Origin: Verrucomicrobiota bacterium
Lineage (GTDB): Bacteria; Verrucomicrobiota; Verrucomicrobiia; Limisphaerales; CANJXF01
Assembly (NCBI GenBank): GCA_038214755.1
Contig: JBBQRQ010000073.1
Coordinates: 1 to 26,351, forward strand
Reading direction: 5' to 3'
Length of the DNA stretch: 26,351 nt
Numbering within the stretch: position 1 is the stretch's first letter; every line of letters starts with the position of its first letter. Below are positions 5,662 through 26,351 of this stretch, piece by piece. The notes below the pieces were generated by a model. It was not told the DNA's origin. It did no database searches and saw only the letters and a list, made by a program, of their open reading frames with translations. The translations under genes were made by a program, and so were the position numbers.

Positions 5662-7479
5662 TCAATTTAACTTTGCCAGTTCGATCTGCAGCAACTTCAC
5701 CAGCGGCCTTACCGTCTCCACGCTGAAATCGAATCGGCAGCCCGCGGCGGAGAATAATTCCGGTAACGGACGCGAACCACCGAGAGACAAAGCGTTTTGA
5801 TAATCACGCAACGCTTTGGCTTTTTCCTTTTTTGAATTCGCCCAGACCTGCAACGCGCCAAGTTGAGCGATCCCATATTCGACGTAATAAAACGGGTGCA
5901 GAAAAATGTGGAGTTGCCGATGCCACAGATTGGCCAGCGCGTCTTCGTAGCCGCTCCAATCGACGTCGCCGCCAAAACGTTTCATCAAAACCAGCCATGC
6001 CTCGCGCCGCTCCTCCCGCGTGTGGCCCGGGTGCGAATAAATCCAGTGTTGAAACGCATCGACCGTCGCGATCCACGGGAAAATTTCCACGATGCCTTCG
6101 AGATGTTCGCGGCGCGCGCGTCGGGCTTCCGGCGCGGCGTAAAAGGTTTCGATGAATTCGTTGCCGAGCAATTCCATGCTCATCGAGGCGACTTCGCAAA
6201 ACTCAATCGGCGCGCTGCGATAGGCGTAAAGATTTTCATCACGCGTGGCGAGCGCGTGAAAGGCGTGACCGGCCTCGTGCAACATCGTTTCAACATCGCG
6301 CTGCTGCCCGACCGCGTTCATAAAAATAAAAGGGAGCCTAGATTCTGCGAGCGTCGATTGATAACCGCCCGGCGCTTTCCCTTTGCGATTGTCGAGATCG
6401 AGCAAGCGCAAGTTCTGCATTTGCTGAAAACCTTCGGCCAACTCGCCGTCGAGTTGGTCGAAAATCCGCTGCGTGCCAGAAACCATTTTGTCCACCTGCT
6501 CGAATGGGCGAAGCGGCGGCAGGCTCGTCGGATCCACCGCCAAATCCCACGGGCGCAGCGATAGATGTGCTGCCGAGATTTTCTCGGCAGAATCTTCGAA
6601 CTGCCGAGTGGAACTCGGCGGCACTTTGTCCTCTTCGGCATCAAGGCGGAGCTTCCGTTTTCTATCCGCTTGCAATCTGCGCAGCACCGGCATGATTTCT
6701 TTCTCAATCGCCGTGTGAAATTTCACGCAATCCTCCGGCGTGTAATCGAATCGGCCTTTCGCGCGAAAAGCGTATTGCAAATAATTGGAAAACCCGGCGT
6801 TCGTCGCAATTTTTTCGCGGAGCTTTAAAAGTTCCTCGAACTGCGCCTCGAACTTTTCCTTTTCCTGCAACCGCCGATTGGCGACAAGTTCCCAGGCTTC
6901 CTGGCGCACGGAGCGATCTGTTTCCTCGAGGTAACGTCCCATCTGCACGAGCGTTTTTTCTTCTCCGCGAAATTGCACCGTCAACGACCCGCTCAGTTTT
7001 TGATATTGCTGGCCGAGCCGGGCTTCTTCGGTTTCGAGCGGAACATTTTCTTCGCGATACAGCTCCACGTGCAACGCCGTGTTGCGGTCCAAAACTTCAT
7101 AGCGCGATTTTTTCTCGCCCAATAATTTTTCACGGAGCGGATGCGCCAGATAAATTTGCGCGAGCTTGAATTGGCGCGGCTTGAGTTGCGGCTCGATGTT
7201 TTCGACGAAATGGAGAAAAGCTTTTTCCGCCTCGGCGTTATCGGTGTGGCAAGTCATCGCGATGTAACGCTTGCTCGCCTCTTCATCAATCGCCGCGCTC
7301 AATTCGCCTCCGCTAAGAATCCAATTTTCAAATTCGGAAATGTTTTCGCATTTAGCCGCACGTGTTTCGAGTCGATCGAACAAGGATGCGATTTGGTTCC
7401 AATCGCCTAGATCAATTTTCGGTGGAACAAATTTGCGCGGCGCATGGGCGGGCAAATTTTCAAACGGCAATAAATTCAT
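5662..7479 (-). CDS. pepF: Oligoendopeptidase F, peptidase family M3B
   Basis: HEAGH zinc motif, KGKAPGGY, PIEFCEVASMSME, HIFLHPFYYVEYGIAQLGA. Confidence 0.93.
   Translation of the reverse strand: MNLLPFENLPAHAPRKFVPPKIDLGDWNQIASLFDRLETRAAKCENISEFENWILSGGELSAAIDEEASKRYIAMTCHTDNAEAEKAFLHFVENIEPQLKPRQFKLAQIYLAHPLREKLLGEKKSRYEVLDRNTALHVELYREENVPLETEEARLGQQYQKLSGSLTVQFRGEEKTLVQMGRYLEETDRSVRQEAWELVANRRLQEKEKFEAQFEELLKLREKIATNAGFSNYLQYAFRAKGRFDYTPEDCVKFHTAIEKEIMPVLRRLQADRKRKLRLDAEEDKVPPSSTRQFEDSAEKISAAHLSLRPWDLAVDPTSLPPLRPFEQVDKMVSGTQRIFDQLDGELAEGFQQMQNLRLLDLDNRKGKAPGGYQSTLAESRLPFIFMNAVGQQRDVETMLHEAGHAFHALATRDENLYAYRSAPIEFCEVASMSMELLGNEFIETFYAAPEARRARREHLEGIVEIFPWIATVDAFQHWIYSHPGHTREERREAWLVLMKRFGGDVDWSGYEDALANLWHRQLHIFLHPFYYVEYGIAQLGALQVWANSKKEKAKALRDYQNALSLGGSRPLPELFSAAGCRFDFSVETVRPLVKLLQIELAKLN
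6567..6624. repeat. REP doublet inserted in-frame in pepF
   Basis: GTGCTGCCGAG-ATTTT-CTCGGCAG, 10-nt spacer, CTGCCGAG-TGGAA-CTCGGCGGCAC. It coincides with an apparent ~26-aa insertion between RKLRLD and SLRPWD. Confidence 0.8.
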
Positions 7480-7513
7480 GCGCCAAAGTTAAAAGTAAAA
7501 AGCCGAAACGCAA
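7480..7513 (-). promoter_or_regulatory. Putative sigma-70 promoter of pepF (leaderless)
   Basis: TTGCGT-16 nt-TAACTT-6 nt-ATG on the minus strand, conserved in the copies at 9833-9866 and 11044-11078. Confidence 0.6.
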
Positions 7514-7604
7514 AATTTTTCAAAAGGATCCGCCACTGGCAAAGGCCCAATCCTCTCCCTGTTTTCTCCATGGCCTCTTGTTCCCAACTCAATTGTTCCA
7601 GCCA

Positions 7605-7801
7605 AGCCGTAACCATGCAGTTGAAGTCACACGCGATGCGGCAGGAGCGCGGAATTTATTCCGCTTCAACGCAATCTCTGCCCATAGGTATCGAACACCA
7701 AACGGTGAACCACGTTGAAGCGGAATAAAATCCGCGCTCCTATTCGCAAGAGCAACTTCATTGCGTGCTTGGCGTCATTTCCCAACTGCATGGTTACGGC
7801 T
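7605..7801. mobile_element. MITE-like element with a nested REPIN
   Basis: Perfect 19-bp terminal IR AGCCGTAACCATGCAGTTG (7605-7623 / 7783-7801). Inner 28/29-bp IR at 7643-7671 / 7713-7741. Confidence 0.75.
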
Positions 7802-9191
7802 AAGGAAGCGTCACCCGATAGAAGCGCTGCGTAAAACTCGGGGCGTTTGTATCGTCGAAGCGGAAAGTCCCATCGGTGGCCGCGGTCTGCGTGCCAATGG
7901 ATGTAAACGATTGATTCAAATTTGTAGTGGCGTAGATGGAATACGTTAGGTTCGCCACCCCGCTGACCTCCAAATGTAATGTTTCACCGGAGAGCCTCGT
8001 GATCGAGAGAATGCGCAAGACTGGTGGTGTCGCGACGGCGATGCCGCGGCGGCCATCGGTGAGTTGATAATAGAAGGCGGTTTGGCCCGCGTCGTTAAAA
8101 GCGCTGTTGCCGAACCTCAAGCCATTTACGACGGAGCCAAAAAGGGCGTCGCCATTGCGGATGATTTTGTCTGCCACCAGATCGGGACCGGTGAAGATTC
8201 CCTTGGCTCCCGTGTTCAGGTTCGCCAGGAAGGCCACCTTGCCTGCGGTGTTAATCGAAGGAGAGCTGAAAGTGGCGAAAGGGGACTTGTTCGTGACAAT
8301 GGTCGTAGTCGCGCCGCCGCTGCCGGTGAAAACGCCTTGGCCCACACCTTGGCCCACGCCGCTGAAACTCGTAACGAAAGCCACCGTGCCAGCCGCGTTG
8401 ATCGAAAGCTGGCTGTTGATGAGGTTGTCGAAAGTTCCGCCGCTCACCGCAATGCTCGTGGTTGCGCCTCCGTCGCCGGCGAAGACCCCGGTGTCCCCCG
8501 CGTCCAGGCCGGCACCGAAGGCGACCGTGCCCGAGGTGTTAATCGAAACGACGGCCCCGAAACCGCTGAAGGTAGGATCGCTGTTCAAGTAGAGGCTTGT
8601 TGGCGATCCGCCGCCACTGCCGGCGAAAACGCCTTGGACCCCGGTGTTGAGATTCGCCTCGAAAGCGACCTTGTCCGCCGCGTTAATCGACAGCGGAATC
8701 TGGAGAGGGAAAAGGACGAATGGCGCCACGCCGCCCAGCACGATGGTAGTGGTCGTAACGCCATCGCCGATGAAGATTCCATTGCTGCCAGCGTCCAGAT
8801 TCCCAAGAAAGGCCACCTTGCCTGCCGCGTTAATCGGAGTACCGCCGCTTCCGAAACTGCTGAATGTGGGTTCGCTACTCAGCGCGATCGTCGTCAAAGG
8901 GCCGCCGCTGCCGGTGTAGATGCCGGTGCCCCCAGCGGACAACGTTCCAAGAAAGGCCGCGATGCCTGAAGCGTTGATCGAGGGAGCCGTGCCGAAATCT
9001 GAAAAGCCGCCGGTGCTATCGGCAATCTGGGTGAAGCTGTAAGACGCGGCTTGGCTAATGACCTCGAAAGACCCGATCAGCGCAGCGATCAGGACGCACC
9101 TGCACAGTTCCCGCCACGGCCGACGCAGCGAGCGCAGGATAAAAAAATTCGTCAGAGCCGAAACGGGCCGGACCAAATGATGGAGATTCAT
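7800..9191 (-). CDS. Exported protein with NxxGxxAF tandem repeats and a verrucomicrobial C-terminal FYRV sorting-type domain
   Basis: Hydrophobic signal ending SQA, about seven repeats of (S/P)INAAGKVAF...G(I/V)FxGxG, C-terminus ...TTNL...FDDTNAPSFTQRFYRVTLP. True start uncertain. Confidence 0.8.
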   Translation of the reverse strand: MNLHHLVRPVSALTNFFILRSLRRPWRELCRCVLIAALIGSFEVISQAASYSFTQIADSTGGFSDFGTAPSINASGIAAFLGTLSAGGTGIYTGSGGPLTTIALSSEPTFSSFGSGGTPINAAGKVAFLGNLDAGSNGIFIGDGVTTTTIVLGGVAPFVLFPLQIPLSINAADKVAFEANLNTGVQGVFAGSGGGSPTSLYLNSDPTFSGFGAVVSINTSGTVAFGAGLDAGDTGVFAGDGGATTSIAVSGGTFDNLINSQLSINAAGTVAFVTSFSGVGQGVGQGVFTGSGGATTTIVTNKSPFATFSSPSINTAGKVAFLANLNTGAKGIFTGPDLVADKIIRNGDALFGSVVNGLRFGNSAFNDAGQTAFYYQLTDGRRGIAVATPPVLRILSITRLSGETLHLEVSGVANLTYSIYATTNLNQSFTSIGTQTAATDGTFRFDDTNAPSFTQRFYRVTLP

Positions 9192-9334
9192 AAAAAAAGA
9201 TGACGTGGCTGGAAACTTCTTTTTTTTGACGCTGCGCGCTTCAGGAGAATTGTCTCTGCGTCGAGTTCATTCGCACCCACAATACGGTGGCGCGACTGGG
9301 AGTCAATTCGATCTTGCTCGCTTTCATTCTGGCG

Positions 9335-9866
9335 AGCGACCCGCTCAGTTTTTGATATTGCTGGCCGAGCTTGGCTTCTTCGGTTTCGAGCGGGACATTT
9401 TCTTCGCGATACAACTCGACGTGCAACGCCGTGTTGCGATCCAAGACTTCGTAGCGAGCTTTTTTTTCGCCCAACAATTTTTGGCGAAGCGGATGCGCGA
9501 GATAAATTTGCGAGAGTTTGAATTGTCGAGGCTTGAGTTGCGGCTCGATGTTTTCGACGAAATGAAGAAACGCTTTTTCCGCATCGGCGTTGTCCGTGTG
9601 GCACGTCATCGCGATGTAACGCTTGCTCGACTCCTCGTCGAGCGCGGCGCTCAACTCGCCGCCGTCGAGAATCCCGTTTTTCAACATCGGAAATGGTTTT
9701 GCAGTCCGCCGCACGAGTTTCGAGTTGGTCGAACAAGGGTGCGATTTGGTTCCAATCGCCAAGATCAATTTTCTGTGAAACAAATTTGCGCGGCGCGTGG
9801 ACGGGCCAATTTTCAAACGGCCATAAATTCATAGGCGGAAGTTAAAAGTAAAAATCGGAAGGCAAA
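9335..9866 (-). pseudogene. pepF 5' copy 1 (promoter + codons 1-166, frameshift near 9675)
   Basis: MNLWPFENWPVHAPRKFV... then, in another frame, ILDGGELSAALDEESSKRY...QKLSGSL. Eight aa differences over codons 54-166 versus intact pepF. Confidence 0.93.
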
Positions 9867-9915
9867 AGTTTTCAGCGCCTCGCAGTTTCAAAATGAAACT
9901 CTAAGAAAGGACTTC

Positions 9916-10131
9916 TCAGGCGAGCGCAGGCTTGCGACGGCGGGAAACAACCGTTCCGTTGCCGTTGGCTCGCTGGCGGCGCAGATGCTCGAGGTAACTT
10001 TTGGAAAGCTTCAGGCCGTGCCGGGCCGCGTAAGAACTCGGGCTTGGCCCGCACACGGCAGGAAACTCGTCTTCAATCGCCCAAAGTTCTTCAATCGAGC
10101 GAATGCGACGGCTTTTGCGTTGCAGTTTCAT
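9916..10131 (-). CDS. Small basic hypothetical protein, probable partner of the GNAT gene
   Basis: 71-aa ATG ORF starting 12 nt after the GNAT stop; no family recognised. Confidence 0.5.
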   Translation of the reverse strand: MKLQRKSRRIRSIEELWAIEDEFPAVCGPSPSSYAARHGLKLSKSYLEHLRRQRANGNGTVVSRRRKPALA

Positions 10132-10143
10132 GGTCTGACTATC

Positions 10144-10778
10144 CTACTTTGTCGTGCGATGCGCAAGCATTTGCTCACGCGATTTATGCAACTCACTGCG
10201 ACAATAGCGCAGGACATCCTCCTTGATGAAGAAGTGGTCGAGAATCTGTTTGACGTCCAGTGCGCGTTCGTAAAATGGCGCGGAGAGCGCCGTTGCTTCA
10301 CCCCAAATGCACGGGATTTCTATCTCTTCAGCGAGTCCAACCAACTGGTAGAGAATTCCCGTGCCGACGCCGCGTATCCGCTCCGGTTTTCCGTCAATCA
10401 CGCGGGGATGCACCGAAAGGAAATCAACAATGAGATGATGACACCAACTCCGCCGGAAGTAGGCAAAGCCAAGAATCGGCGTGGGCGACGGCCAGGTGGC
10501 GCGCGCCACGAAAATCATGGCCAGTTCCGATTTCGGATCGCGCCAAATCGAATCGCGCAACTCGGTCAAACTGGTGACGGTCGCGCCGGTGCGGCGATAT
10601 AACGCCACCGTTTGGAAACGAGCCTCGCGTATTCGAGCGCGTCCGCGATGGCCGCATTTTCACCTGGCTCGCTTTGGAAGCGCCAGCGCGTGAGCGAACG
10701 CACGTCGCTGTCGCTGCCCAATCGGAGTTCTGCCTCGCGCGGATGGCCGTCAACTTCGATTTGGAAACGGACGTTCAT
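10144..10778 (-). pseudogene. GNAT-fold acetyltransferase (toxin-like), split by a frameshift near 10598
   Basis: MNVRFQIEVDG...SKRWRY joins YRRTGATV... with a 1-nt shift. Motif A-like RGVGTGIL and ATALSAPFYE. Confidence 0.7.
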
Positions 10779-10932
10779 GGAGCGGTGATGAGTGTTCCAA
10801 AACTTTCACGGCCACGCCACGCTTTTGTGATGGGTGTCTCATTCGCAAAAAATATAACTTCGGGAGAAATTTTCCGCTCGTTCGGCAAATGTTCCAACTT
10901 TTCAAAGTAGGAACAAGGCTATTCCCATCCGC

Positions 10933-11078
10933 AGTTGGTCGAACAACGGCGGGATTTGGTAACAATCGTCGAGATCAATTTTCGCTGGAACAAATTTGCG
11001 CGGCGCGTGGACGGGCAAATTTTTGAAACGGCAATAAATTCATGGGCGAAATTTAAAAGTAAAAATCCGAAAGGCAAA
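10933..11078 (-). pseudogene. pepF 5' copy 2 (promoter + codons ~1-37, early frameshift)
   Basis: ATG at 11043. Aligns to 7369-7513 (atgaatttattgccgtttc...ccgcgcaaatttgttcca..aaaattgatct...ttcgaccaact). Confidence 0.88.
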
Positions 11079-11214
11079 TTCTTCAGCGTCTTGCAAATGT
11101 TGTCAGGGTAAAACCGCCCTGTGCGGGATTAACAGTCAACATTGCGGGAGCCGTTGCGCTCCCGGTTGAAATTTACACTGTCGCGCTATGGAAATTTCTG
11201 AAGCGGTTCGACCT

Positions 11215-11629
11215 TCAGCGTTTTCGATTCGCTAGGATAGTTAAAAACTCGCTGGCGCGGACGATTTGAATGCCTCGGAAATTTTTCAACTCCAGCAAAT
11301 CGGTATCGCCGGTAACAATAAATTCCGCGTTGCCTTCAATCGCACATTCAAGCACGGCATTATCATCGGGATCACGCGGCAAGGCCTTCAACGTCTTCGG
11401 AATGCTTACCACGCGAAGAAAACTCAAATAATCTGCAAGCGTTTCGGTAGTCTGTTCGGGAGAAACCGAGTTTGGATTCCAATTTCTCCGCCAACTCCTC
11501 CATCAACTCAACGCAGGTCACCGCCTGAACATTTCCATCCCGCGCCTGTTCCACCCACTGAAATGGTTTGCCGCGCCAGCCCGCGGCGGAGAAAAGGATG
11601 TTCGTGTCGAATACGACGATGATCGCCAC
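11215..11629 (-). pseudogene. PIN-domain toxin (VapC-like), frameshift near 11460
   Basis: VVFDTNILFSA N-terminus, and RDPDDNAVLECAIEGNAEFIVTGDTDLL in a second frame. Confidence 0.88.
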
Positions 11630-11631
11630 GA

Positions 11632-11870
11632 TTACTCCTCGTGCAACAGGCGGTTTACAAATTCTTCACGTTGATCTTCTGACAAGCGATCCCAGTCCAG
11701 CCCGCGTTCGGCACAAACGCGACGTAATTGCATTTCCCCGAAACGTAACCGCTCATCACGGCGGACTGCGATTCCTGCGCTAAAGCGAGCAGTGCGTCAC
11801 GCTTCCGTGCGGCGGGCAATTGGCGCACGAGAGAAACGACTTGCTCATCGGTCAATTCCAAAACGCTCAT
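11632..11870 (-). pseudogene. Putative antitoxin of the PIN toxin, frameshift near 11763
   Basis: MSVLELTDEQVVSLVRQLP...AQESQ joins, after a 1-nt shift, RRDERLRFGEMQLRRVCAERGLDWDRLSEDQREEFVNRLLHEE*, ending 2 nt before the PIN GTG. Confidence 0.7.
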
Positions 11871-11923
11871 GCGAGAAAAATAACAGCCACCAAGCAAATC
11901 ACAACTTGATTACTACCCGATCA

Positions 11924-12122
11924 TTATCGTTGTGGCACGATGTAACGCTTGCTCGATTCCTCGTCGAGCACCGCGCTCAACGCGCCGCCGTCGAAAATCC
12001 AATTTTCAAAATCGGAAAGGGTTTTACAGTCCGCCGCGCGTATTTCGAGTTGGTCGAACAGAGGCACGATTTGGCTCCAGTCGCTGAGATTTAATTTTCG
12101 CTGGAACAAATTTGCCCGGCCG
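11924..12122 (-). pseudogene. pepF 5' copy 3 (codons ~14-81, no promoter, several indels)
   Basis: KFVPAK..LSDWSQIVPLFDQLEIRAADCKTLSDFENWIFDGGALSAVLDEESSKRYI, with an 8-nt deletion before CH.DN. Confidence 0.88.
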
Positions 12123-12142
12123 CTCCTCGACAACCGCCTTGC

Positions 12143-12387
12143 TCAAATAATTTCTTCTCCGAGGGCCGCTTGGCCGGAAAGCAGGAAAATCTCGATCAAT
12201 TCGCCTTCGCCGCACACCGTCATCTCGGAGAACCGCTTGAACCATGTCCCTTGAGGTACGTCCGGTTCGAGCTCAAGCCATCGAGTAATAATTCCAGTTG
12301 GTCCGTGGAAATCTCCCGCTCCGCAACGCGGTGGGCCAGGTGGCGAAACAGAGGCCGAGGAAGGTTCTCCCGCCGAACTCTAGGGAT
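12143..12387 (-). pseudogene. Small toxin-like hypothetical protein; start codon mutated and frameshifted
   Basis: (ATC)PRVRRENLPRPLFRHLAHRVAEREISTDQLELL joins WLELEPDVPQGTWFKRFSEMTVCGEGELIEIFLLSGQAALGEEII*. It overlaps the upstream stop (CATCCCTAG, inferred original CATGCCTAG). Confidence 0.55.
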
Positions 12388-12490
12388 GAGCGAGATCGCC
12401 GTAGAAACCGCGTTCCAGTTCTGCTTTGAGGCGGGCAACCTCGGCAGGATCGTTCGAGGCCACCATGCGATCGGCAAGCTCGCGCCGCGA
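12380..12490 (-). pseudogene. 3' remnant of an antitoxin-like gene truncated at the IS3 junction
   Basis: ...RRELADRMVASNDPAEVARLKAELERGFYGDLAHP*, with its stop overlapping the next gene's start. Confidence 0.45.
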
Positions 12491-13561
12491 TTGGAAAACG
12501 CGCCTCCCGCCGCAACTGGCCCAACAACCTGCAACCCTCGAAGCGCTGCGGCTGCGCGTGGCCCAACTGGAGCGCGACAACCTCCAGTTGCGCCAGCAAC
12601 GTGACATTTTAAAAAAAACTTTGGGCATTGTCTCGACGACGTAACCGACCGCTACCCACGCATCCAAGCCATGCAAAAGGAATATTCGATGACGCAACTC
12701 TGCGAGACTTTTGCGGTGAGCCGATCGGGCTATTACGCCTGGTGCCAACGCCAGCCCTCGGTCCGTCAACAAACCAATGCCCGACTGTTGAAGGAAATCC
12801 AGGCCCTGCGCCAGGGCCAGGAAGCCTGCTACGGCAGTCCGCGCATGACCGAGGAACTCAAAGGCCGCGGCTACCAATGCAGCGAGAAGCGCATCGCCCG
12901 GCTCATGCACCAACACGGGCTGCGAGCGCAAGCCCGGCCCCGCTTCGTGCCCTGCACCACCGACAGTAACCATGACCTGCCGGTGGCCCCGAACCGGCTG
13001 GCTCAAACGCCCGCGCCGGACGGTCCAACCAGGTCTGGCTGCAAGACATCACCTACGTGCCGACCGCGCAAGGCTGGTTGTATCTGGCGCTGGTGCTGGA
13101 CTTGTGGAGTCGCAAGATCGTCGGCTGGGCGATGGCCGATCATCTCCGCAGCGAACTTGGTGGTCAGCGCGCTGCAAATGGCCTGCACCCAGCGCCGCCC
13201 CGCCAAAGGATTGCTGGTGCACTCCGATCGCGGCGTGCAATACGCCAGCCAGGAAACGCGCGCGTTGCTGGCACGCCACGGCTGGGTGGCCAGCATGAGC
13301 CGCCAAGGCAATCCCTATGACAACGCCTGGATGGAAAGCGCCATCGGAAAGATCAAAAACGAAGTGCTGGGCCGGACCCTGCCCGCCGATCACGCGGCCG
13401 CGCGCCAACAACTCTTTGTCGGCATCGAAGGCTGGTACAACCAACGTCGCCCTCACAGCGCCTTGGGCTATCAATCTCCAGTTGCCTTTGAAACGCAGTT
13501 CATGAAAAACTAACAACCATAAACCACTTCCGCCCCCGTCCACCGTTTCGGGGGAACTTCA
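12488..13561 (+). mobile_element. IS3-family element, left-truncated (orfA C-terminus, orfB with two compensating frameshifts, IRR)
   Basis: orfA end LERDNLQLRQQRDILKKTLG, A8 slippery site 12611-12618, orfB SRSGYY / YGSPRM / GWLYLALVLDLWSRKIVGW / HSDRGVQY / DNAWMES / YNQRRPHSALGYQSP, IRR 13536-13561 ending in CA. Left boundary approximate. Confidence 0.93.
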
Positions 13562-14370: not shown

Positions 14371-14667
14371 GCGGTTCCTCGCATAAGCAGGTAGGTAGGA
14401 CCGAACCTTTCAGAAGGTTCCCATTGTTGAGCCTCGAAGCCTTGAAGTTATTTGTCGCGCCAGGCTGACGTTCCGCAGTGAAGCCAAGTGACCTGCAATG
14501 TTTGCCGTTGCACCATTTTTTCGCGGCAGAATTGGTCACGAAGTGACTAGTGCGAAGAAGGGTGCTTGCGTCACGAAGGGTTGAAAGAAACCTCACGGAA
14601 AACCATTGAGCATTACCAAACCATCAAATTGAAAAGAAAGACAAATAAAAAGACGGATTCGATAATT

Positions 14668-17600
14668 ATGAAGACTATCTCACTCGGTCGTATCTCCAAG
14701 GTTTTGCTGCTCACGGTCATTGGTGCTCTACTGGGATTTGAGGCATTCGCGCAAGCGCCTCAAGCAGGTTGTTGCCTGGTTCTGCCTGTCTATCCTAGCA
14801 ATAAAGTTTCGCTGGAGCTAACGGCCTACTACGGCTATCCCAATAATAGTAGTCTTCTTACCGCGAAAGTCTTGACCGGGCCGGTTCCCTCTTCACCTCC
14901 TCTCTATGCTGCATGGTGTGTCGATGCGAACGCTAACCTGGATGTCCAGCAGCACGGTACCTTTACGCCCTTTGACGGACTTCTTTTCTCCAGTTGCGAT
15001 CCCAATCTCAACGATAAGCTTGGTCAGACCAACCCCGGGGTTTACCATTCTCCAACTTCCTATGTATCTCCTGCAGTCTGGAAACAAGTGAATTATATTC
15101 TTAACCATCGCGACTTTACCCAGCCGCCTTATAGCGGCCCGGTGGATGGTTACAGCTATGCCTACTATTGGGATGTGCAAGAATCCATCAACGTATTGGT
15201 TGGCGGTTCGTTGACTGTCCATTATGACGCTGTTCATTCGGGAGTTACTAACGCCCTTCTTAGCGCCGCCGCCACGTATGCCCCCGCGTGGCAACCTGCC
15301 TGTGGCGACAAGATGGCTGCCATTGCCTATCTTGATGCTACACTCTGGTATGATCCGTTTGACGACCCGCAACTTATCATCATTGAAGTTCCCTGCGTAT
15401 GTCCTCCTGTTTGCGACGTGATTGGGAGTACCAATATCTGCGCGGGACAATCGCAAAATTTCTCCGTGACAGTCAGCGGCGGGACACCGCCCTATACGAT
15501 AGCCTGGACCGGGCCTGGTGGATTCAATTCTACCAATGCGACTATCACCGTCAGTATAGCAGGGACTTACACCGTGACCATCACGGACTCAACGGTGCCC
15601 TATCCGCAGAGCACCTCTTGTTCGGGATTCTTAAAGGTGACCACCACTCCGCCAATGTTCGATAATTGTCCTACCAACTTGAATTTAGGCTGCAACCCAA
15701 ATACGAATAGCATCCCCAGTTGCAACAATCCCGTAATAGTAACCGCTCACGATAATTACGGAAGTGTGACGGTTAATTGTACCGGCATGACGGATCAAGA
15801 CAATGGTTGTGTCAAGACGCGCACGCTCACCTACACGGCGAATAACGTCTGCGGCAATGCCACCTGCGTGCAAAAAGTCACTTGGACGGTGGATACGAAC
15901 AAGCCTGCTATCACTTTCGTCCCACCGGGTGGTGACCTTGGTTGTAATCCTACCAATCTGCCGACAGACCTGAACGTAAAAGCATTGGTAACGGCAACCG
16001 ATGATTGTGGCGCGACGACAAACGATGTTTCCCATGTGGACACGACCAATGGTTGCGGAATGAGGCGCACCTTCACGGTCTTTGTCACCGACGGATGCGG
16101 TAACGTTTCAGATTCAAAGACCATTGTTTATACGTGGACGACAGACAACGCTAAACCGACGGTCATGGTGAGCGGCGGCGGCAACCTCGGCTGCAACCCC
16201 GCCAATGTTCCGAATGACTCGACTGTTAGAACCATGGTCACGGCCACTGATAATTGCAGCGTCCTCTCCACCAATGTCACCCACGTTGACACCTCAAATG
16301 GGTGTTCTATCACTCGAACCTTTACCATCACCGCTACGGATGGTTGTGGGAATATCTCAGATGCGAAGATGGTTGTTTATAACTGGACAGCGGACACCAC
16401 CAAACCCAGCATCACCTGTCCCGCGCCTCTGAGTGTCCAGTGTATCGGCGACATCCCCGCTCCAGACCTTAGCGCAGTCGCAGCCTCCGATGGATGTAGC
16501 ACGCCTAGGAAAAGTTTTGTTGGCGACAGCTACCTGACCAATGGCTGTGTCATCATCGTTACCCGCATTTATAAAGCGACCGACGCCTGCGGCAATTCCA
16601 ACACCTGCACCCAGACTATTACAGTTAGTGATACAACCAAACCGGTCATTACCACCGTTCCGACTGGCGGGGATCTAGGTTGCACACCTGCTTCCCTTCC
16701 TACCGACGCAAGTGTGAAAGCATTGGTAGCGGCCATGGATAACTGCGGAATGCCAACCATCAATGTCTCGCACATTCTCGGAGGCAATGCCTGTTCATCA
16801 AATCTAACATTTACGATTACGGCCATTGATGGTTGCCGTAACGTTTCCGATGCGCGAACAGTAGTTTATACCTTCGGTTGTCCTCCGTGCGTGCCGAGCA
16901 CTTTTAACTTCCAGGGTAGTAGCGCTCTTTCGGGCACCAACGGAAATACCCGCACCTTTTCGACCAACGGTGTCTCGATCAAAGTAACCGCGTTCAGTCG
17001 CACCAAACCGGGCGGAAGTTGGGCCACGGCTTACCTCGGCAGCTATGGTGGAGGTTTAGGAGTCACGGATTCCAGCGAGGGCGATGGTAGTAATAACCGG
17101 CATACCGTGGACAATATTGATCGAGACAACTACGTCCTGTTCGAGTTCTCCGAGCCGGTTGTTTTAAGCCGGGCGACGTTGGGTTATGTGGTTTCCGACA
17201 GCGATCTGACTTTGTGGATAGGAACCTTCGCCGATCCGTATAATAATCACTTAACGCTGAGTGATGCAGTCCTCGGCAGCTTCGGTTATACGGAAGACAA
17301 TTTGACGGGTAGCACCACCGCGCGGACAGCAGATTTAAATGCCACGGGAGTCATGGGCAATGCAATAGTAATCGCCGCCTGGCCGGGAGATGCAACCCCG
17401 GAAGATCAATTCAAGATCGCTCTATTCGACATTTGCAAACCTTCTTGCGCGCCCGCGCCTTGCACCGGCAGCATCTGCGGCTCAGTAGTGCGCGACTGTG
17501 ATGCGAGCGGAAATCTAAGCGGTGATACGGGCATTCCAAATGTTACTGTAACTCTCAAGAAGAACGGCACCAATGTCACGTCCACCGTGACTGGCACCAA

Positions 17601-19305
17601 TGGCGATTATTGTTTCGGCAATTTGGTTGCCGCGACCTACACCGTAGTGGTGACGCCGCCGACAAGCTACTCTCTGACCACACCATCTGGTTGTAATCAT
17701 CAACAGACCGTTACGTTGACCGCCTGCCAGAGCAAGACTGGAATCACGTTCGGCTATACTGGAACCGCGCCCGGCATTTATTTCAAGAAGACCGGGCCGG
17801 CTACCGCTGTTTGCGGACAGACTATCACCTATACCTTTGCGGTAACAAATACGGGTAACACCTGTTTCTACGGAGGCATGCACGTGGATGATCCTATGTT
17901 GGGTGGCAGAATCTTTTACCAGACTCCCGTATCTCCGGGACAAGGGTTCACCTTTACTTCCAATTATGTCGTGAAGGCCACAGACCCGACGAACCTCGTA
18001 AATACGGCGACTGCCACCGGCCATCCGCCTACTGGCAATGCGGTTTCCGCGCAATCTTCCTGGACGGTGAAGGTTACGCCTTGCACTCCATGCACGGGCA
18101 GCATCTGTGGCGCGGTGTTGCGCGATTGCGACGCGAACGCAAACGTCAGTGGCGAAGCAGGTATTGCTGGAGTGACGGTCCAACTTAAGAATAGCAGTGG
18201 AACTGTAGTGGCCACCAACATGACGGACGCGAACGGCAATTACTGTTTCAATAATCGAACTGCCGGAACTTATACGGTCGTTGTTACCCCGCCCGCCAAT
18301 TATACGCTGACGACACCCGCCAGTTGCAATCATCAGCAAACGGTGACTCTGGCCGCCTGTCAGAATAAGGCCAGTATTAACTTCGGCTATACAGGAACAG
18401 CTCCCGGCATCTCTTTCAGGAAGACTGGTCCTGCCAATGCAGTGGTTGGCCAGACGATTACTTATACCTTTTCCGTAACCAATACTGGCAACACCTGTTT
18501 CTACGGAGGGTTGCACGTGGATGATCCTATGTTGGGTGGCAGAATCTTCTACCAGACTCCCGTCTCTCCGGGACAAGGGTTCTCATTTACTTCTAACTAT
18601 GTAGTAAAAGCTTCAGACCCGGCCAATCTCGTGAATACAGCGACAGCTACGGGTCATCCTCCGACGGGGAACGCGGTTTCGGCGCAGTCGTCATGGACGG
18701 TAAAAGTAACTTCACCCACCAACCCGCTACCCAGTCCGTGGGTTGCCAGGGACATTGGTAATGTCGCTGCAACTGGAAGCGCCAGTTATTCCGCCGGCAA
18801 GTTCTCTGTGAATGGTTCCGGCGCTGACATATGGGACACCGCCGATGCGTTTCGTTATGTCTATCGCTCGGTTACCGGCAATTTTACCATAGTAACTCGC
18901 GTCGCGACTGTCCAGAATACGAATCCTTGGGCGAAGGCGGGAGTTATGGTTCGCGAAAGCCTTGATGCAGGTTCAAAGAATGGCGGGTTATTCGTCACTC
19001 CAGGCAATGGTGTGGTAGGTCAGAGTCGGAATACTACCGGCGGCATCACTTACAGTGGGACCTTGGCGAGCTCAACGGCTCCTTATTGGATAAAGATTGT
19101 CCGCAGTGGAAACAGCTTCACTGGCTACTATTCGGCAAATGGGACTACCTGGAGCGCAACGGGGTCGCAAACGTTGACGACCGTGCCCACTGTGTATATC
19201 GGTCTAGCGGTTACCAGCCACAACGACGGGACTTCATGCACTGCCACGTTTGACAACGTCGCCGTGACACTTTCTACCAGTTCTCATACACAATCGGAAC
19301 AATGA
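14668..19305 (+). CDS. Large secreted Cys-rich repeat surface protein / adhesin (1545 aa)
   Basis: Signal peptide ending AFA-Q, N-terminal thioester-domain-like region, five HYR-like repeats (ATDNC...RTFTITATDGCGN), two SdrD-B-like + DUF11-like units, C-terminal ConA/DUF1349-like domain (GSGADIW..DAF, WAKAGVMVRE, YIGLAVTSHN). Confidence 0.88.
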   Translation: MKTISLGRISKVLLLTVIGALLGFEAFAQAPQAGCCLVLPVYPSNKVSLELTAYYGYPNNSSLLTAKVLTGPVPSSPPLYAAWCVDANANLDVQQHGTFTPFDGLLFSSCDPNLNDKLGQTNPGVYHSPTSYVSPAVWKQVNYILNHRDFTQPPYSGPVDGYSYAYYWDVQESINVLVGGSLTVHYDAVHSGVTNALLSAAATYAPAWQPACGDKMAAIAYLDATLWYDPFDDPQLIIIEVPCVCPPVCDVIGSTNICAGQSQNFSVTVSGGTPPYTIAWTGPGGFNSTNATITVSIAGTYTVTITDSTVPYPQSTSCSGFLKVTTTPPMFDNCPTNLNLGCNPNTNSIPSCNNPVIVTAHDNYGSVTVNCTGMTDQDNGCVKTRTLTYTANNVCGNATCVQKVTWTVDTNKPAITFVPPGGDLGCNPTNLPTDLNVKALVTATDDCGATTNDVSHVDTTNGCGMRRTFTVFVTDGCGNVSDSKTIVYTWTTDNAKPTVMVSGGGNLGCNPANVPNDSTVRTMVTATDNCSVLSTNVTHVDTSNGCSITRTFTITATDGCGNISDAKMVVYNWTADTTKPSITCPAPLSVQCIGDIPAPDLSAVAASDGCSTPRKSFVGDSYLTNGCVIIVTRIYKATDACGNSNTCTQTITVSDTTKPVITTVPTGGDLGCTPASLPTDASVKALVAAMDNCGMPTINVSHILGGNACSSNLTFTITAIDGCRNVSDARTVVYTFGCPPCVPSTFNFQGSSALSGTNGNTRTFSTNGVSIKVTAFSRTKPGGSWATAYLGSYGGGLGVTDSSEGDGSNNRHTVDNIDRDNYVLFEFSEPVVLSRATLGYVVSDSDLTLWIGTFADPYNNHLTLSDAVLGSFGYTEDNLTGSTTARTADLNATGVMGNAIVIAAWPGDATPEDQFKIALFDICKPSCAPAPCTGSICGSVVRDCDASGNLSGDTGIPNVTVTLKKNGTNVTSTVTGTNGDYCFGNLVAATYTVVVTPPTSYSLTTPSGCNHQQTVTLTACQSKTGITFGYTGTAPGIYFKKTGPATAVCGQTITYTFAVTNTGNTCFYGGMHVDDPMLGGRIFYQTPVSPGQGFTFTSNYVVKATDPTNLVNTATATGHPPTGNAVSAQSSWTVKVTPCTPCTGSICGAVLRDCDANANVSGEAGIAGVTVQLKNSSGTVVATNMTDANGNYCFNNRTAGTYTVVVTPPANYTLTTPASCNHQQTVTLAACQNKASINFGYTGTAPGISFRKTGPANAVVGQTITYTFSVTNTGNTCFYGGLHVDDPMLGGRIFYQTPVSPGQGFSFTSNYVVKASDPANLVNTATATGHPPTGNAVSAQSSWTVKVTSPTNPLPSPWVARDIGNVAATGSASYSAGKFSVNGSGADIWDTADAFRYVYRSVTGNFTIVTRVATVQNTNPWAKAGVMVRESLDAGSKNGGLFVTPGNGVVGQSRNTTGGITYSGTLASSTAPYWIKIVRSGNSFTGYYSANGTTWSATGSQTLTTVPTVYIGLAVTSHNDGTSCTATFDNVAVTLSTSSHTQSEQ
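17461..18710 (+). repeat. Intragenic tandem duplication, 630-bp period
   Basis: CTGSICG..RDCDA...SAQSSWTVKVT occurs at 17461 and at 18091. Confidence 0.9.
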
Positions 19306-23688: not shown

Positions 23689-24651
23689 TCACGCGCGCGG
23701 GTGAGCCTCATCGTAGGCGCGCTTTAAACGTTCCATCGTCAAGTGCGTGTAAATCTGGGTCGTGGCGAGATGGGCGTGGCCGAGCAATTCCTGCACGCTG
23801 CGCAAATCCGCGCCCGCATTGAGGAGGTGCGTGGCGTAACTGTGTCGCAATTTGTGCGGCGTGAGTTTGGGGTCGAGTCCGGCCAGCGCGAGATATTTTT
23901 TTAATCGCAATTGAAGAATGCGCGGCGCAACCGGCCGAAACTTTTTTGCGCTCGCAAGAAAAGCCGACGCGTTGCCAGTGGGCGGATGCGGCAAAAGTTG
24001 CCAGTAATTTTCAATCGCCTTTAAGGCCGGTGCTCCAATGGGAACGAGCCGTTCCTTTTTTCCTTTGCCGAGAACGCGAACGAGTTGTTGGCTGAAATCA
24101 ATGTCGCCCGCAGTCAAACCGCAAAGTTCGCTGATGCGCAGCCCACAGGAATAGATCGTTTCCAAAATTGCCACGTCGCGATTGGCCACGCTCGATTCGA
24201 CACGCCGGCCCCGTTTCTTTTTCTGGTTGGTTGGCTGCAATTGTAAAGGCGCTTCCAGCAAATCGTTCATCTGTTCCGCGGTCAAAAATTTCGGCAGCCG
24301 ATTTCCGACTTTCGGCATGGAGATGTTTTTGATCGGCATCGTTTCGACTTGCCCTCGTCGAATGAGAAATTTGTAAAAGCTCCGCAGCGCGCAGAAGCGA
24401 AGTTGAATGGCCGCGCGACTCAATTTCCCCCGTCCGAGAAAACGAAGGTATGAACGGAAATCATCTCGTAGCAACGACGGCCAAATGGGCGGCTGTTGTC
24501 GCTCCGTCCTGAACCAATTGAAAAATTCCAGCAACGCCTGGCGATAATTTCGTTGGGTATAAATGGAAGCACCACGATCCGACGCCAGATGTTGGAGAAA
24601 ACCTTTAATCCATTCATCGGGTGTTTCTGAATCACTATTTTCAGATTTCAT
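23689..24651 (-). CDS. xerC: Tyrosine recombinase XerC
   Basis: RGASIYTQRNY, LPKFLT, YSCGLRISEL, GKGKKER, TPHKLRHSYATHLLNAGADLRSVQELLGH..LATTQIYTH, C-terminal AHPRA. Confidence 0.9.
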   Translation of the reverse strand: MKSENSDSETPDEWIKGFLQHLASDRGASIYTQRNYRQALLEFFNWFRTERQQPPIWPSLLRDDFRSYLRFLGRGKLSRAAIQLRFCALRSFYKFLIRRGQVETMPIKNISMPKVGNRLPKFLTAEQMNDLLEAPLQLQPTNQKKKRGRRVESSVANRDVAILETIYSCGLRISELCGLTAGDIDFSQQLVRVLGKGKKERLVPIGAPALKAIENYWQLLPHPPTGNASAFLASAKKFRPVAPRILQLRLKKYLALAGLDPKLTPHKLRHSYATHLLNAGADLRSVQELLGHAHLATTQIYTHLTMERLKRAYDEAHPRA

Positions 24652-24670
24652 CTGAAATGCTGCGATAATT

Positions 24671-24946
24671 TCAACCCTTGTAAATTGCGTGCGTCCCGAT
24701 GTCGATGGACACGACGCAATCTTTTTCAATGTAAAATGTCGACCGTAAGTCGCCTTCAATATCCACTGCGTAAATGGTGCAGCCATGCAAGGCGGATAGC
24801 TTGTGAATTTTGTGCGCGCGAAGGCGGGGATCAAACGGATTCTCTTTGAAAACTTTCCAGGCGCGTCGAGCGGACTCCTTCTGCGCTGCGTTCAACCGAT
24901 AGAAGTGAGTCCAAAACGGTTCAACGGCTCGGAAGCGATAATTCAT
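24671..24946 (-). CDS. RelE/ParE-superfamily toxin (probable)
   Basis: 91 aa, basic, FKENPFDPRLRAHKI, DLRSTF, IDIGTHAIY. Confidence 0.7.
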   Translation of the reverse strand: MNYRFRAVEPFWTHFYRLNAAQKESARRAWKVFKENPFDPRLRAHKIHKLSALHGCTIYAVDIEGDLRSTFYIEKDCVVSIDIGTHAIYKG

Positions 24947-25140
24947 CGCAAATGAGGCGGCGGGGTTTCAAACAGGGCGGTTTCCATATCCACGAACCGG
25001 CCTTCCGCTGCGGCTTTCATTCCTTCTTTGAAAGAGGCGGGAACCCACGAATCGTCTTCCTCCATGACAAACTTGGTGACTTGCGCCCGTTCTTCGTTGG
25101 GCAGGATTTTGATTTGTTCGATGATTTCTTGTGCGCTCAT
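24943..25140 (-). CDS. Cognate antitoxin (probable)
   Basis: 65-aa acidic ORF MSAQEIIEQIKILPNEERAQV...AAEGRFVDM, with ATGA overlap with the toxin. Confidence 0.7.
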   Translation of the reverse strand: MSAQEIIEQIKILPNEERAQVTKFVMEEDDSWVPASFKEGMKAAAEGRFVDMETALFETPPPHLR

Positions 25141-25210
25141 GCTGTTAATTATTCACGGATTTTCCTCGCGGGCAAGTCTTCGCACAAGAGCGACCGGAGA
25201 TTGGTTCAAT

Positions 25211-26351
25211 TCATTCCGCTTCGCGCGGGGGAAAATCAAAGGTCACTTTTCCTTTGTCGTCCATCACGAGATACGCGAGAAAAGGTTTGCCGGCTTTGGA
25301 AATAAAATCTTTCAGCAAATCCGTTTTGTGGTCCGTGAGAAGTTTTTTCGCCTGCGTCGCATCAATCGGCTGCTGCAAAATTTCTCTGCCGATCTTAAAT
25401 CTGCACGGCTTCAAATCGTTTTGAGATTTTTCGCAGACGTAATCCGTCGCCGTTTCAAAAACTTTCCCAACGCACTTTGGACATTTGCCAATGGGCGTCT
25501 GGCTGGAGAAATCGATTTTCTCAAGGGGCTCTTTTGGTTTGGCGGATTTTCCTGCGCCTGATTTTGATTTGCCTTCGCCGCGCGCCTCAAATTCAAACGC
25601 GGTTTTTCCTTCTTTGCCCACGACGAGATACGCCTTGAACGCGCGTCCCGTCCGTTTGGAAATAAATTTCGTGAGCAAATCCGTTTTCCCGGTGGAAAGC
25701 AGCTTGACGATTTGTTCCTTCGCAATCGGCTGCTGCAAAATGATCGCGCCGCTGCGGAAATCGCAGGTCTTGTTCGGACCGACCGATTTTTCGCAAACAT
25801 AATTCATCCCGTTTTCAAAAACGCGCGCGCCACACTTCGGACATTTCCCGAGCGATTCTTTGCCGGTGAAATCGACTTCCGCCACCGTGCCGTCTTCATT
25901 TTCCTTCGGGCCGAAATCAAATTCCGGTTTGAATTCCGGCGTGAGTTTTATGACGGCGGCAAAGGGAAATCCTTGCTTGCTGCGAAAACCCTGGAGCGGG
26001 CCGACCTGTTTCTTCGTGAGCAGTTCTTCGATTTCTGGAATTTCAAATTGCCGTCCCGCCACGATTTTCCAGAGCGAAAAATCGCAAGCCTGACACTGAA
26101 ACTTTTTGTAGTTCTCGTGAATCTCGCCGCCGCATTTCGGACACGCCACATTGAGCTTGCCGAAATCGCCGGGCACCGTGTCGCTCTCGTATTGCTTCGC
26201 TTTTTCCACAATGTGCCGAGTCATTTCCTCGATTTGCCGCATGAAGTCGGCGCGTTTCAACTGGCCACGCTCCATTTGACGAAGTTGAAATTCCCAATCG
26301 CCAGTTAATTCCGGCGAGGAAAGTTCAGGAACGCCAAGACCCCGCAACAGC
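25211..26351 (-). CDS. topB: DNA topoisomerase III (type IA), C-terminal part; 5' end lies beyond the window
   Basis: SPELTGDWEFQLRQMERG, three CPKC zinc-ribbon-like / C-terminal repeats (LQGFRSKQGFPFAA, TDLLTKFISKRTGRAFKAYL). Confidence 0.85.
   Translation of the reverse strand, partial: LLRGLGVPELSSPELTGDWEFQLRQMERGQLKRADFMRQIEEMTRHIVEKAKQYESDTVPGDFGKLNVACPKCGGEIHENYKKFQCQACDFSLWKIVAGRQFEIPEIEELLTKKQVGPLQGFRSKQGFPFAAVIKLTPEFKPEFDFGPKENEDGTVAEVDFTGKESLGKCPKCGARVFENGMNYVCEKSVGPNKTCDFRSGAIILQQPIAKEQIVKLLSTGKTDLLTKFISKRTGRAFKAYLVVGKEGKTAFEFEARGEGKSKSGAGKSAKPKEPLEKIDFSSQTPIGKCPKCVGKVFETATDYVCEKSQNDLKPCRFKIGREILQQPIDATQAKKLLTDHKTDLLKDFISKAGKPFLAYLVMDDKGKVTFDFPPREAE

Follow-up and report, generated by a model that had tools for sequence, protein, structure and literature searches.

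Displaced starts of an M3 peptidase gene alternate with small-gene cargo in a Verrucomicrobiota genome

Insertion with long target duplication is said to have been described by Nobusato et al. in 2000. Furuta, Abe and Kobayashi (2010) recorded repeats of 24–423 bp (Table 3a), often lying over a start or stop codon, and, in the portion of that paper drawn on here, hypothesized release of the inserted DNA and its re-invasion without evidence (PMC2853133); the mechanism has so far been unsettled. With one-sided homology in Escherichia coli, 56 of 60 recombinants were duplications, measuring 109–950 bp in the 14 that were sequenced, and the excerpts of that study used here read them as recircularization plus a single crossover, ten times commoner than homology-facilitated illegitimate recombination (HFIR) (PMC3240628). 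Here we describe contig JBBQRQ010000073.1 of assembly GCA_038214755.1, from a Verrucomicrobiota bacterium of the Limisphaerales, analyzed over its entire 26,351 nucleotides (the window) and belonging to a 5.1-Mb metagenome bin. Three displaced 5′ ends (stubs) of an M3 family oligoendopeptidase gene alternate in it with cargo genes, beside the intact gene. The array probably arose in three rounds, in each of which a unit of cargo, promoter and gene start from a close relative recombined into the resident M3 gene start through the host's own homologous recombination.

The array and its immediate surroundings comprise the following features.

5662..7479, minus strand: anchor, intact M3 family oligoendopeptidase gene, 605 amino acids, TIGR02289 M3_not_pepF (profile match)
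7480..7522, minus strand: upstream block common to copies 1 and 2, putative leaderless promoter TTGCNT-16-TANNTT-6-ATG (conservation)
7601..7799, no strand: dispersed palindromic repeat with arms at 7643-7671 and 7713-7741, also on other contigs (repeat and BLAST searches)
7800..9191, minus strand: cargo 1, intact gene for an NxxGxxAF-repeat protein (DUF7453, TIGR05002), 463 amino acids, GC 0.60 (profile match)
9337..9874, minus strand: stub 1, promoter (15-nt spacer) and nt 1-495 (codons 1-165), 88% identical (BLASTN/TBLASTN)
9916..10131, minus strand: cargo 2b, open reading frame (ORF) of 71 amino acids, no family match (profile search)
10144..10778, minus strand: cargo 2a, GNAT-like gene split by a frameshift (ESM Atlas)
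10933..11085, minus strand: stub 2, promoter and nt 1-110 (codons 1-37), 86% identical, one frameshift (BLASTN/TBLASTN)
11215..11629, minus strand: cargo 3b, PIN-domain toxin gene (PF13470/TIGR00305) split by a frameshift (profile match)
11632..11870, minus strand: cargo 3a, small antitoxin-like gene, frameshifted (position before the PIN gene; similar pair on contig C88)
11924..12120, minus strand: stub 3, nt 39-242 (codons 14-81), 77% identical, two indels (BLASTN/TBLASTN)
12143..12485, minus strand: distal pair of decayed genes from a small family that occurs several times in the genome, with no fourth stub bounding it (genome homologues)
12486..13513, plus strand: IS3-family remnant that cuts the distal end of the array, adjoining the distal pair and outside the units (profile match and homologues)

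The anchor gene scored above the curated cut-off of TIGR02289 (522 bits, cut-off 442) and failed that of the PepF profile TIGR00181 (82 bits, cut-off 491); the name pepF given to it in a preliminary description of this DNA is therefore wrong. Its protein groups in a tree with Verrucomicrobiota and Limisphaerales records. BLASTN and TBLASTN over the whole genome returned three partial copies of its 5′ end, all on the minus strand of the window with E-values of 1e-36 or lower, and no further copy elsewhere. The alternation of three displaced ends with cargo was thereby confirmed, with copy 1 ending at codon 165, and the scattering of anchor fragments through the genome that the preliminary description had named as telling against its proposal was not seen. 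Stub 1 carries a single +1 frameshift (dS 0.40, dN 0.063) and shows a 34-nt perfect match where it meets its cargo. Stub 3 is without the promoter and the first 12 codons, of which no separate copy was found on other contigs (one best match per contig strand) or in a motif search of 7–15 kb. The direct repeats of 538, 153 and 197 nt are variable, over 30 bp and low-copy, and the inserts are under 20 kb and carry no mobility gene. In agreement with the earlier claim of neither an integrase nor a fixed site, the stubs break off at three different points (nt 110, 242 and 495), and the three joints showed neither a common hairpin (repeat search; no attC model was run) nor a repeat; searches past the joints located no donor sequence. 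Decay of the array rises outward. Because of its frameshift, stub 1 also contains a 214-codon frame (9188-9832, minus strand) that runs from the displaced start codon to an ATGA overlap with the cargo start, which could couple translation to the cargo or be chance.

The stubs differ from the intact gene as working alleles would. For stub 1, the ratio of amino-acid-changing to silent substitution rates (dN/dS) is 0.16, with 0.04–0.13 among genus orthologues at dS near 1, where resident duplication followed by decay would be expected to give at least 0.5, one branch being neutral and the other selected. The proportion of amino-acid-changing differences (pN) climbs outward over stubs 1–3 (0.06, 0.11 and 0.15), consistent with their order of age. 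These values support the preliminary proposal that cargo, promoter and 5′ end were captured repeatedly, each event restoring the gene and pushing older ends outward. Over codons 14–81, mutual silent differences among the intact gene and the three stubs are 0.21–0.39, compared to 0.55–0.58 between the intact gene and genomes G004 and G005; as the four alleles are nearer to each other than to the sampled species, whose M3 genes are about 76% identical overall, the donors would be unsampled relatives closer than these. The likeness between stub 1 and the intact gene is patchy (86/93, then 86/110), as would be expected of recombined alleles.

Similar scars are found throughout the genome. Self-BLAST of 3,279 long ORFs, retaining low-copy end fragments of at least 60 nt within 10 kb, yielded 65 stubs on the same strand and the expected side, of which 44 were 3′ ends lying downstream and 21 were 5′ ends lying upstream; the exceptions were 16 stubs on the reverse side and 2 on the opposite strand. 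After curation (stub 1 added; two rows with mis-called frames dropped, and 12 by hand as overlaps, whole-unit repeats or mirror images), 52 scars remained at 48 ORFs, one of which is itself a long stub. Their repeats have a median identity of 86–88% and a pooled dN/dS of 0.17 (bootstrap 0.13–0.21), with 0.18 for the 25 scars containing frameshifts or stops and 0.15 for the inner halves of the stubs. Since the differences are mostly silent, the stubs appear to be formerly working alleles of related species and not the products of simple duplication. Homology mostly stops close to the stop codon or promoter, as donor and resident flanks would differ there. No joint motif emerged from base counts over the 52 joints, no overall identity gradient ran along the stubs, and the longest identical runs (31.6 nt, compared to 25.4 nt in permutation) do not discriminate between models. 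A minimum stub length, which would point to crossover within the repeat, was looked for: stubs occur down to about 35 nt, and detection fails below about 25–30 nt. At least two matches were present at 12 of the 48 ORFs, and by eye about seven other loci are truly stacked, two of them three deep. The density is 5–9 scars per 400 kb in this genome and 5 in G003 (six rows, one a mirror image), with none in the scanned 400 kb of G001, 302 kb of G005 or 200 kb each of G038 and G039.

A scan of the 38 scar cargoes no longer than 2.1 kb covered 149 of their 158 ORFs. Named toxin–antitoxin (TA) families were present in 11 of the 38 (one below cut-off), and six further cargoes contain DUFs that we take to be TA-linked, bringing the count to 17/38. 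Genome-wide, cargo was co-oriented in 14 of 21 cases, and the fixed orientation seen in the window thus does not generalize. A family of proteins of about 70 amino acids with no Pfam match is the sole cargo of several scars here and in G003 (L211, L214, L242, L246 and L191:2937-3161; likeness judged by eye). The analysis does not bear out the view that the window harbors a special integron-like system at this gene: the array is one of about 50 scars, stacks occur at other genes and three of its cargo genes are frameshifted.

The comparison was extended to the M3 locus of other hosts. No M3 5′ stub was present in the loci of 21 relatives or in nine other family genomes, and of a further 160 loci (80 from metagenomes and 80 from genomes, which may overlap; 109 with at least 2 kb upstream), two held a single stub with other cargo. 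The idea that relatives would display differing cargo bounded by 5′ fragments was thus borne out by single stubs in two loci; none of the loci held a stack. A gene-specific hotspot common to relatives was rejected on these counts. In both single-stub loci the cargo is joined in frame to the displaced M3 start codon and its promoter, which lends support, from two other hosts, to the suggestion that the 5′ end serves the cargo as promoter. The fused frames are a 556-amino acid PMT_2 glycosyltransferase-like ORF (L284:6237-7904) and a 271-amino acid Peptidase_C39 ORF (L096:1356-2168).

At the other end of the gene, a 3′ stub starting 117–122 nt before the stop was found in seven distinct hosts (L316, whose numbers are identical to those of L078, L317, L322, L323, L324, L325 and L085), standing behind related hairpin-flanked DUF559 cargo, of which two hosts keep only remnants. 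The gene bodies of these hosts are 70–90% identical, and the hosts are scattered in a clade of 28 tips, 20 of them scar-free (19 with at least 2 kb downstream); patchiness was judged by eye. Four of the 3′ stubs have just 0–4 amino-acid-changing differences from their own tails and are therefore not ancient neutral relics. The inner 57 nt of two stubs fit other hosts better than their own (L323, 53 versus 44 own, rank 51 of 150; L085, 51 versus 44 own, rank 61), and for L317 and L322 the own host was the best match in the outer part only. The simplest reading of these alignments is that 3′ stub and cargo would move jointly between species and be renewed in part when they arrive. One old insertion, many losses and gene conversion would together account for some of the pattern, though not for the foreign inner halves. 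The single breakpoint in seven patchily distributed hosts, together with two stubs resembling foreign alleles, suggests that the repeat travels with the cargo and re-targets it through ordinary recombination.

In the proposed mechanism, a donor fragment would break inside the gene and beyond the cargo, and its ends would be joined before or after a single crossover, setting a new breakpoint. One gene would be left whole each time, with the previous start displaced outward. Once a unit of stub, cargo and gene start exists, both of its arms would match the same gene end, so that it could pass between species by plain recombination with no further illegitimate step, and a new unit reaching an already occupied locus would build a stack next to the intact gene. 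The genome encodes ComEC, two DprA, Ku and a LigD_N-domain protein; ComEC and DprA occur widely, scoring above cut-off in 10 of 14 controls, and are a weak sign of DNA uptake. Rather than being a regulated system of cassettes, the array records gene gains and is decaying. Going further, the duplicated gene end may act as a self-made homing arm by which units spread across species through host recombination, refresh their arms and stack into chronological arrays, a generalization that we put forward tentatively and at somewhat below even chances. If true, it would provide a general enzyme-free route for TA modules and small genes into chromosomes, with displaced promoters and start codons recruited to express cargo.

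Several points weigh against capture of relatives' alleles by recombination within the repeat. Stubs 2 and 3 have dN/dS of 0.44 and 0.30, on as few as 36 and 64 codons, and before curation the ratio was 0.36 for the 21 5′ rows and 0.19 for the 3′ rows. Many stubs are short (35–75 nt) and 10–20% diverged, and such sequences are poor substrates for RecA; together with the presence of mutS and mutL as open frames, this tells against ready crossover within the repeat. G001 and G005, scar-free in 400 and 302 kb, likewise encode ComEC and Ku, which therefore do not explain the scar rate. The evidence for a travelling repeat was obtained in another clade and at the gene's 3′ end, and there the inner stubs of L316, L324 and L325 match their own host tails at rank 1–2, as gene conversion would also produce. 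For the units of the window itself, neither a donor nor an empty site nor a conspecific strain came to light, leaving their crossover points unmapped.

Short diverged stubs and intact mutS and mutL frames keep classical HFIR alive as the strongest rival. It places a long anchor inside the gene and an illegitimate joint within the resident 5′ end, leaving stubs that are purely resident (features taken from PMC3240628 and PMC2884548). It accounts for very short diverged stubs (35–55 nt), varying breakpoints and the absent joint motif, competence genes are encoded, and the part of PMC5361080 relied on here proposes it for type VI secretion system (T6SS) and Rhs arrays. However, its usual product, going by the excerpts of PMC3240628, is an insertion with deletion, whereas the window shows duplication, and it cannot yield one breakpoint in seven hosts or foreign inner stubs. 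We therefore consider it unlikely as the general explanation, although it may be the first origin of some units. Of the two mechanisms offered in the preliminary description, the evidence favors a repeat travelling with the cargo (a circle or two-arm crossover), with classical HFIR losing ground.

Excision of circles of cargo plus gene end by HUH enzymes (RAYT/IS200-type or DUF559-associated), followed by integration through host recombination, is improbable. Y1_Tnp matches number 17 in this genome, 7 in scar-rich G003 and none in scar-free G001, and hairpins bound the 3′ cassette in other hosts; but G005 has 9 Y1_Tnp matches and no scar in 302 kb, and high-copy repeats are depleted near joints (within 100 nt in 1 of 52 scars, compared to 25–28% of background windows), with none at the three joints of the window.

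True target or tandem duplication of resident DNA, with decay and later allele exchange or gene conversion, is distinctly improbable. At least 25 identical nt at the joint were found in 7 of 48 scars, including stub 1, compared to 2.6 expected (P about 0.01; post hoc, one of seven statistics), which fits either the recent arrival of a donor unit or duplication that was true in part. Over codons 14–37, allele distances increase outward in a ladder, and the patchy likeness of stub 1 and the intact gene can be counted on the same side. Yet the pooled and inner-half dN/dS values (0.17 and 0.15) largely refute duplication, there is no overall identity gradient, and over codons 38–81 stub 1 is nearer to stub 3 than to the intact gene.

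Site-specific integration, as integron cassettes or by a phage or integrative conjugative element integrase acting in trans with a replacement 5′ end, is very improbable: the stack is polarized and the genome holds five tyrosine recombinase matches, one 11 kb away, but the breakpoints vary, about 48 different genes are targeted without a joint motif, and the nearby enzyme is XerC-like at best (115 versus an integron-integrase cut-off of 265).

In contigs from a single run, possibly the source of the assembly and hence not independent, pieces 7645-9366 and 9535-13336 were identical to the window at a depth of 25–26 (flanks 20–28), and no listed contig joint skips a unit. The array is real; strain-chimeric misassembly is hardly credible, as the stubs are only 77–88% identical and frameshifted, depth is even over units and flanks, stubs 2 and 3 lie within one 3.8-kb piece and other assemblies contain similar scars, even though this is a metagenome bin checked in one run where no single piece covers the whole array.

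Among the named cargo of the window, the NxxGxxAF gene alone is intact; the GNAT-like, antitoxin-like and PIN genes are each split by frameshifts. The GNAT-like gene scored 0.96 in ESM Atlas to a GNAT cluster of 219 amino acids, and a homologue lies inside another gene-end scar (C8:23946-24353). Profile searches gave no family match for the antitoxin-like ORF or the distal pair, so that their TA labels rest on position and genome homologues. Homologues of the window cargo occur at nine other sites, two of them between duplicated ends.

The 43-nt block upstream of the anchor gene is conserved in 8/8 genus relatives and also present in copies 1 and 2; the promoter placed there on grounds of conservation was absent from the output of a consensus promoter scan. 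In G001, G003 and G004 the M3 gene sits between a conserved upstream cluster and a conserved downstream gene; here those neighbors are on other contigs (C10 and C61), and the M3 gene is therefore non-syntenic in this genome. An empty-site comparison found the gene start single-copy in relatives, with different neighbors. The palindromic repeat at 7601..7799 is probably an independent insertion. Within the intact gene, an in-frame insert of about 26 codons (6565-6637, minus strand) matches a dispersed palindromic repeat (25 BLAST rows); orthologues of the same genus have about 579 amino acids, compared to 605 in the window, and several metagenome orthologues have longer N-terminal matches, which suggests other in-frame inserts. 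Elsewhere in the window are a 1,579-amino acid protein of secreted type (14566-19305, plus strand) that contains SdrD_B and DUF7507 repeats and follows a small VPDSG-CTERM ORF, and a XerC-like recombinase gene with the end of a topoisomerase III gene (23689-26347, minus strand), apparently housekeeping genes unrelated to the array. The open mutS and mutL frames speak against a loss of mismatch repair. The mutS frame is 1,176 amino acids long, compared to 864–944 in relatives over cut-off, and its domain III contains an in-frame insert of about 200 amino acids that weakly resembles PBECR1 nucleases (27 bits, cut-off 27.6; L256:2172-2777, minus strand, on contig C121); the same gene carries a 3′ scar.

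Chromosomal TA modules carry no mobility enzyme and yet are thought to arrive by horizontal transfer, according to the part of PMC2654758 consulted; the TA-type families in short scar cargoes point to a concrete route for such transfer. The units of the window resemble insertion with long target duplication in lacking a mobility gene, in having long direct repeats of variable length and low copy number, and in sparing the target gene, which stays intact. In the sections of PMC2853133 used here, the cargo consists of restriction–modification genes and most repeats are over 90% alike, whereas the present units have no restriction–modification cargo but TA-type and small genes, diverged working alleles and stacking. 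The low dN/dS of the stubs implies that the repeats are two alleles and not a copied target. The E. coli duplications, as excerpted from PMC3240628, arose in laboratory conjugation at a vector-borne lacZ end, not from a diverged foreign allele, and are unstacked. Orphan arrays of T6SS effector–immunity, Rhs and contact-dependent growth inhibition (CDI) loci are alike in sequential displacement, chronological order and lack of an integrase, and the integron comparison is made there; judged from the same portion of PMC5361080, they are polymorphic toxin loci with selected immunity genes, whereas the array here uses a housekeeping gene start and its cargo is mostly decaying. Neisseria minimal mobile elements share cargo without mobility genes, swapped via conserved flanks, but in the text of PMC3787668 drawn on they have two different flanking genes and cargo is replaced, where one gene end is used here and cargo is added. 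A literature search, with most subscription journals outside it, found no paper on stacked gene-start stubs or on cross-species spread at the same breakpoint. In an integron, the integrase adjoins the array and the insertion site is fixed; here the nearest tyrosine recombinase, XerC-like, is 11 kb away, and three breakpoints are accompanied by no motif over 52 joints. With no fixed site, no integrase and cargo mostly broken, 'integron-like' overstates the array, which is a good example of a known footprint rather than a new system. What the present analysis adds to that footprint is the finding of related cassettes at one 3′ breakpoint in seven hosts, patchy and with two stubs like foreign alleles, which suggests, on comparative grounds, the re-invasion that Furuta and colleagues had hypothesized.

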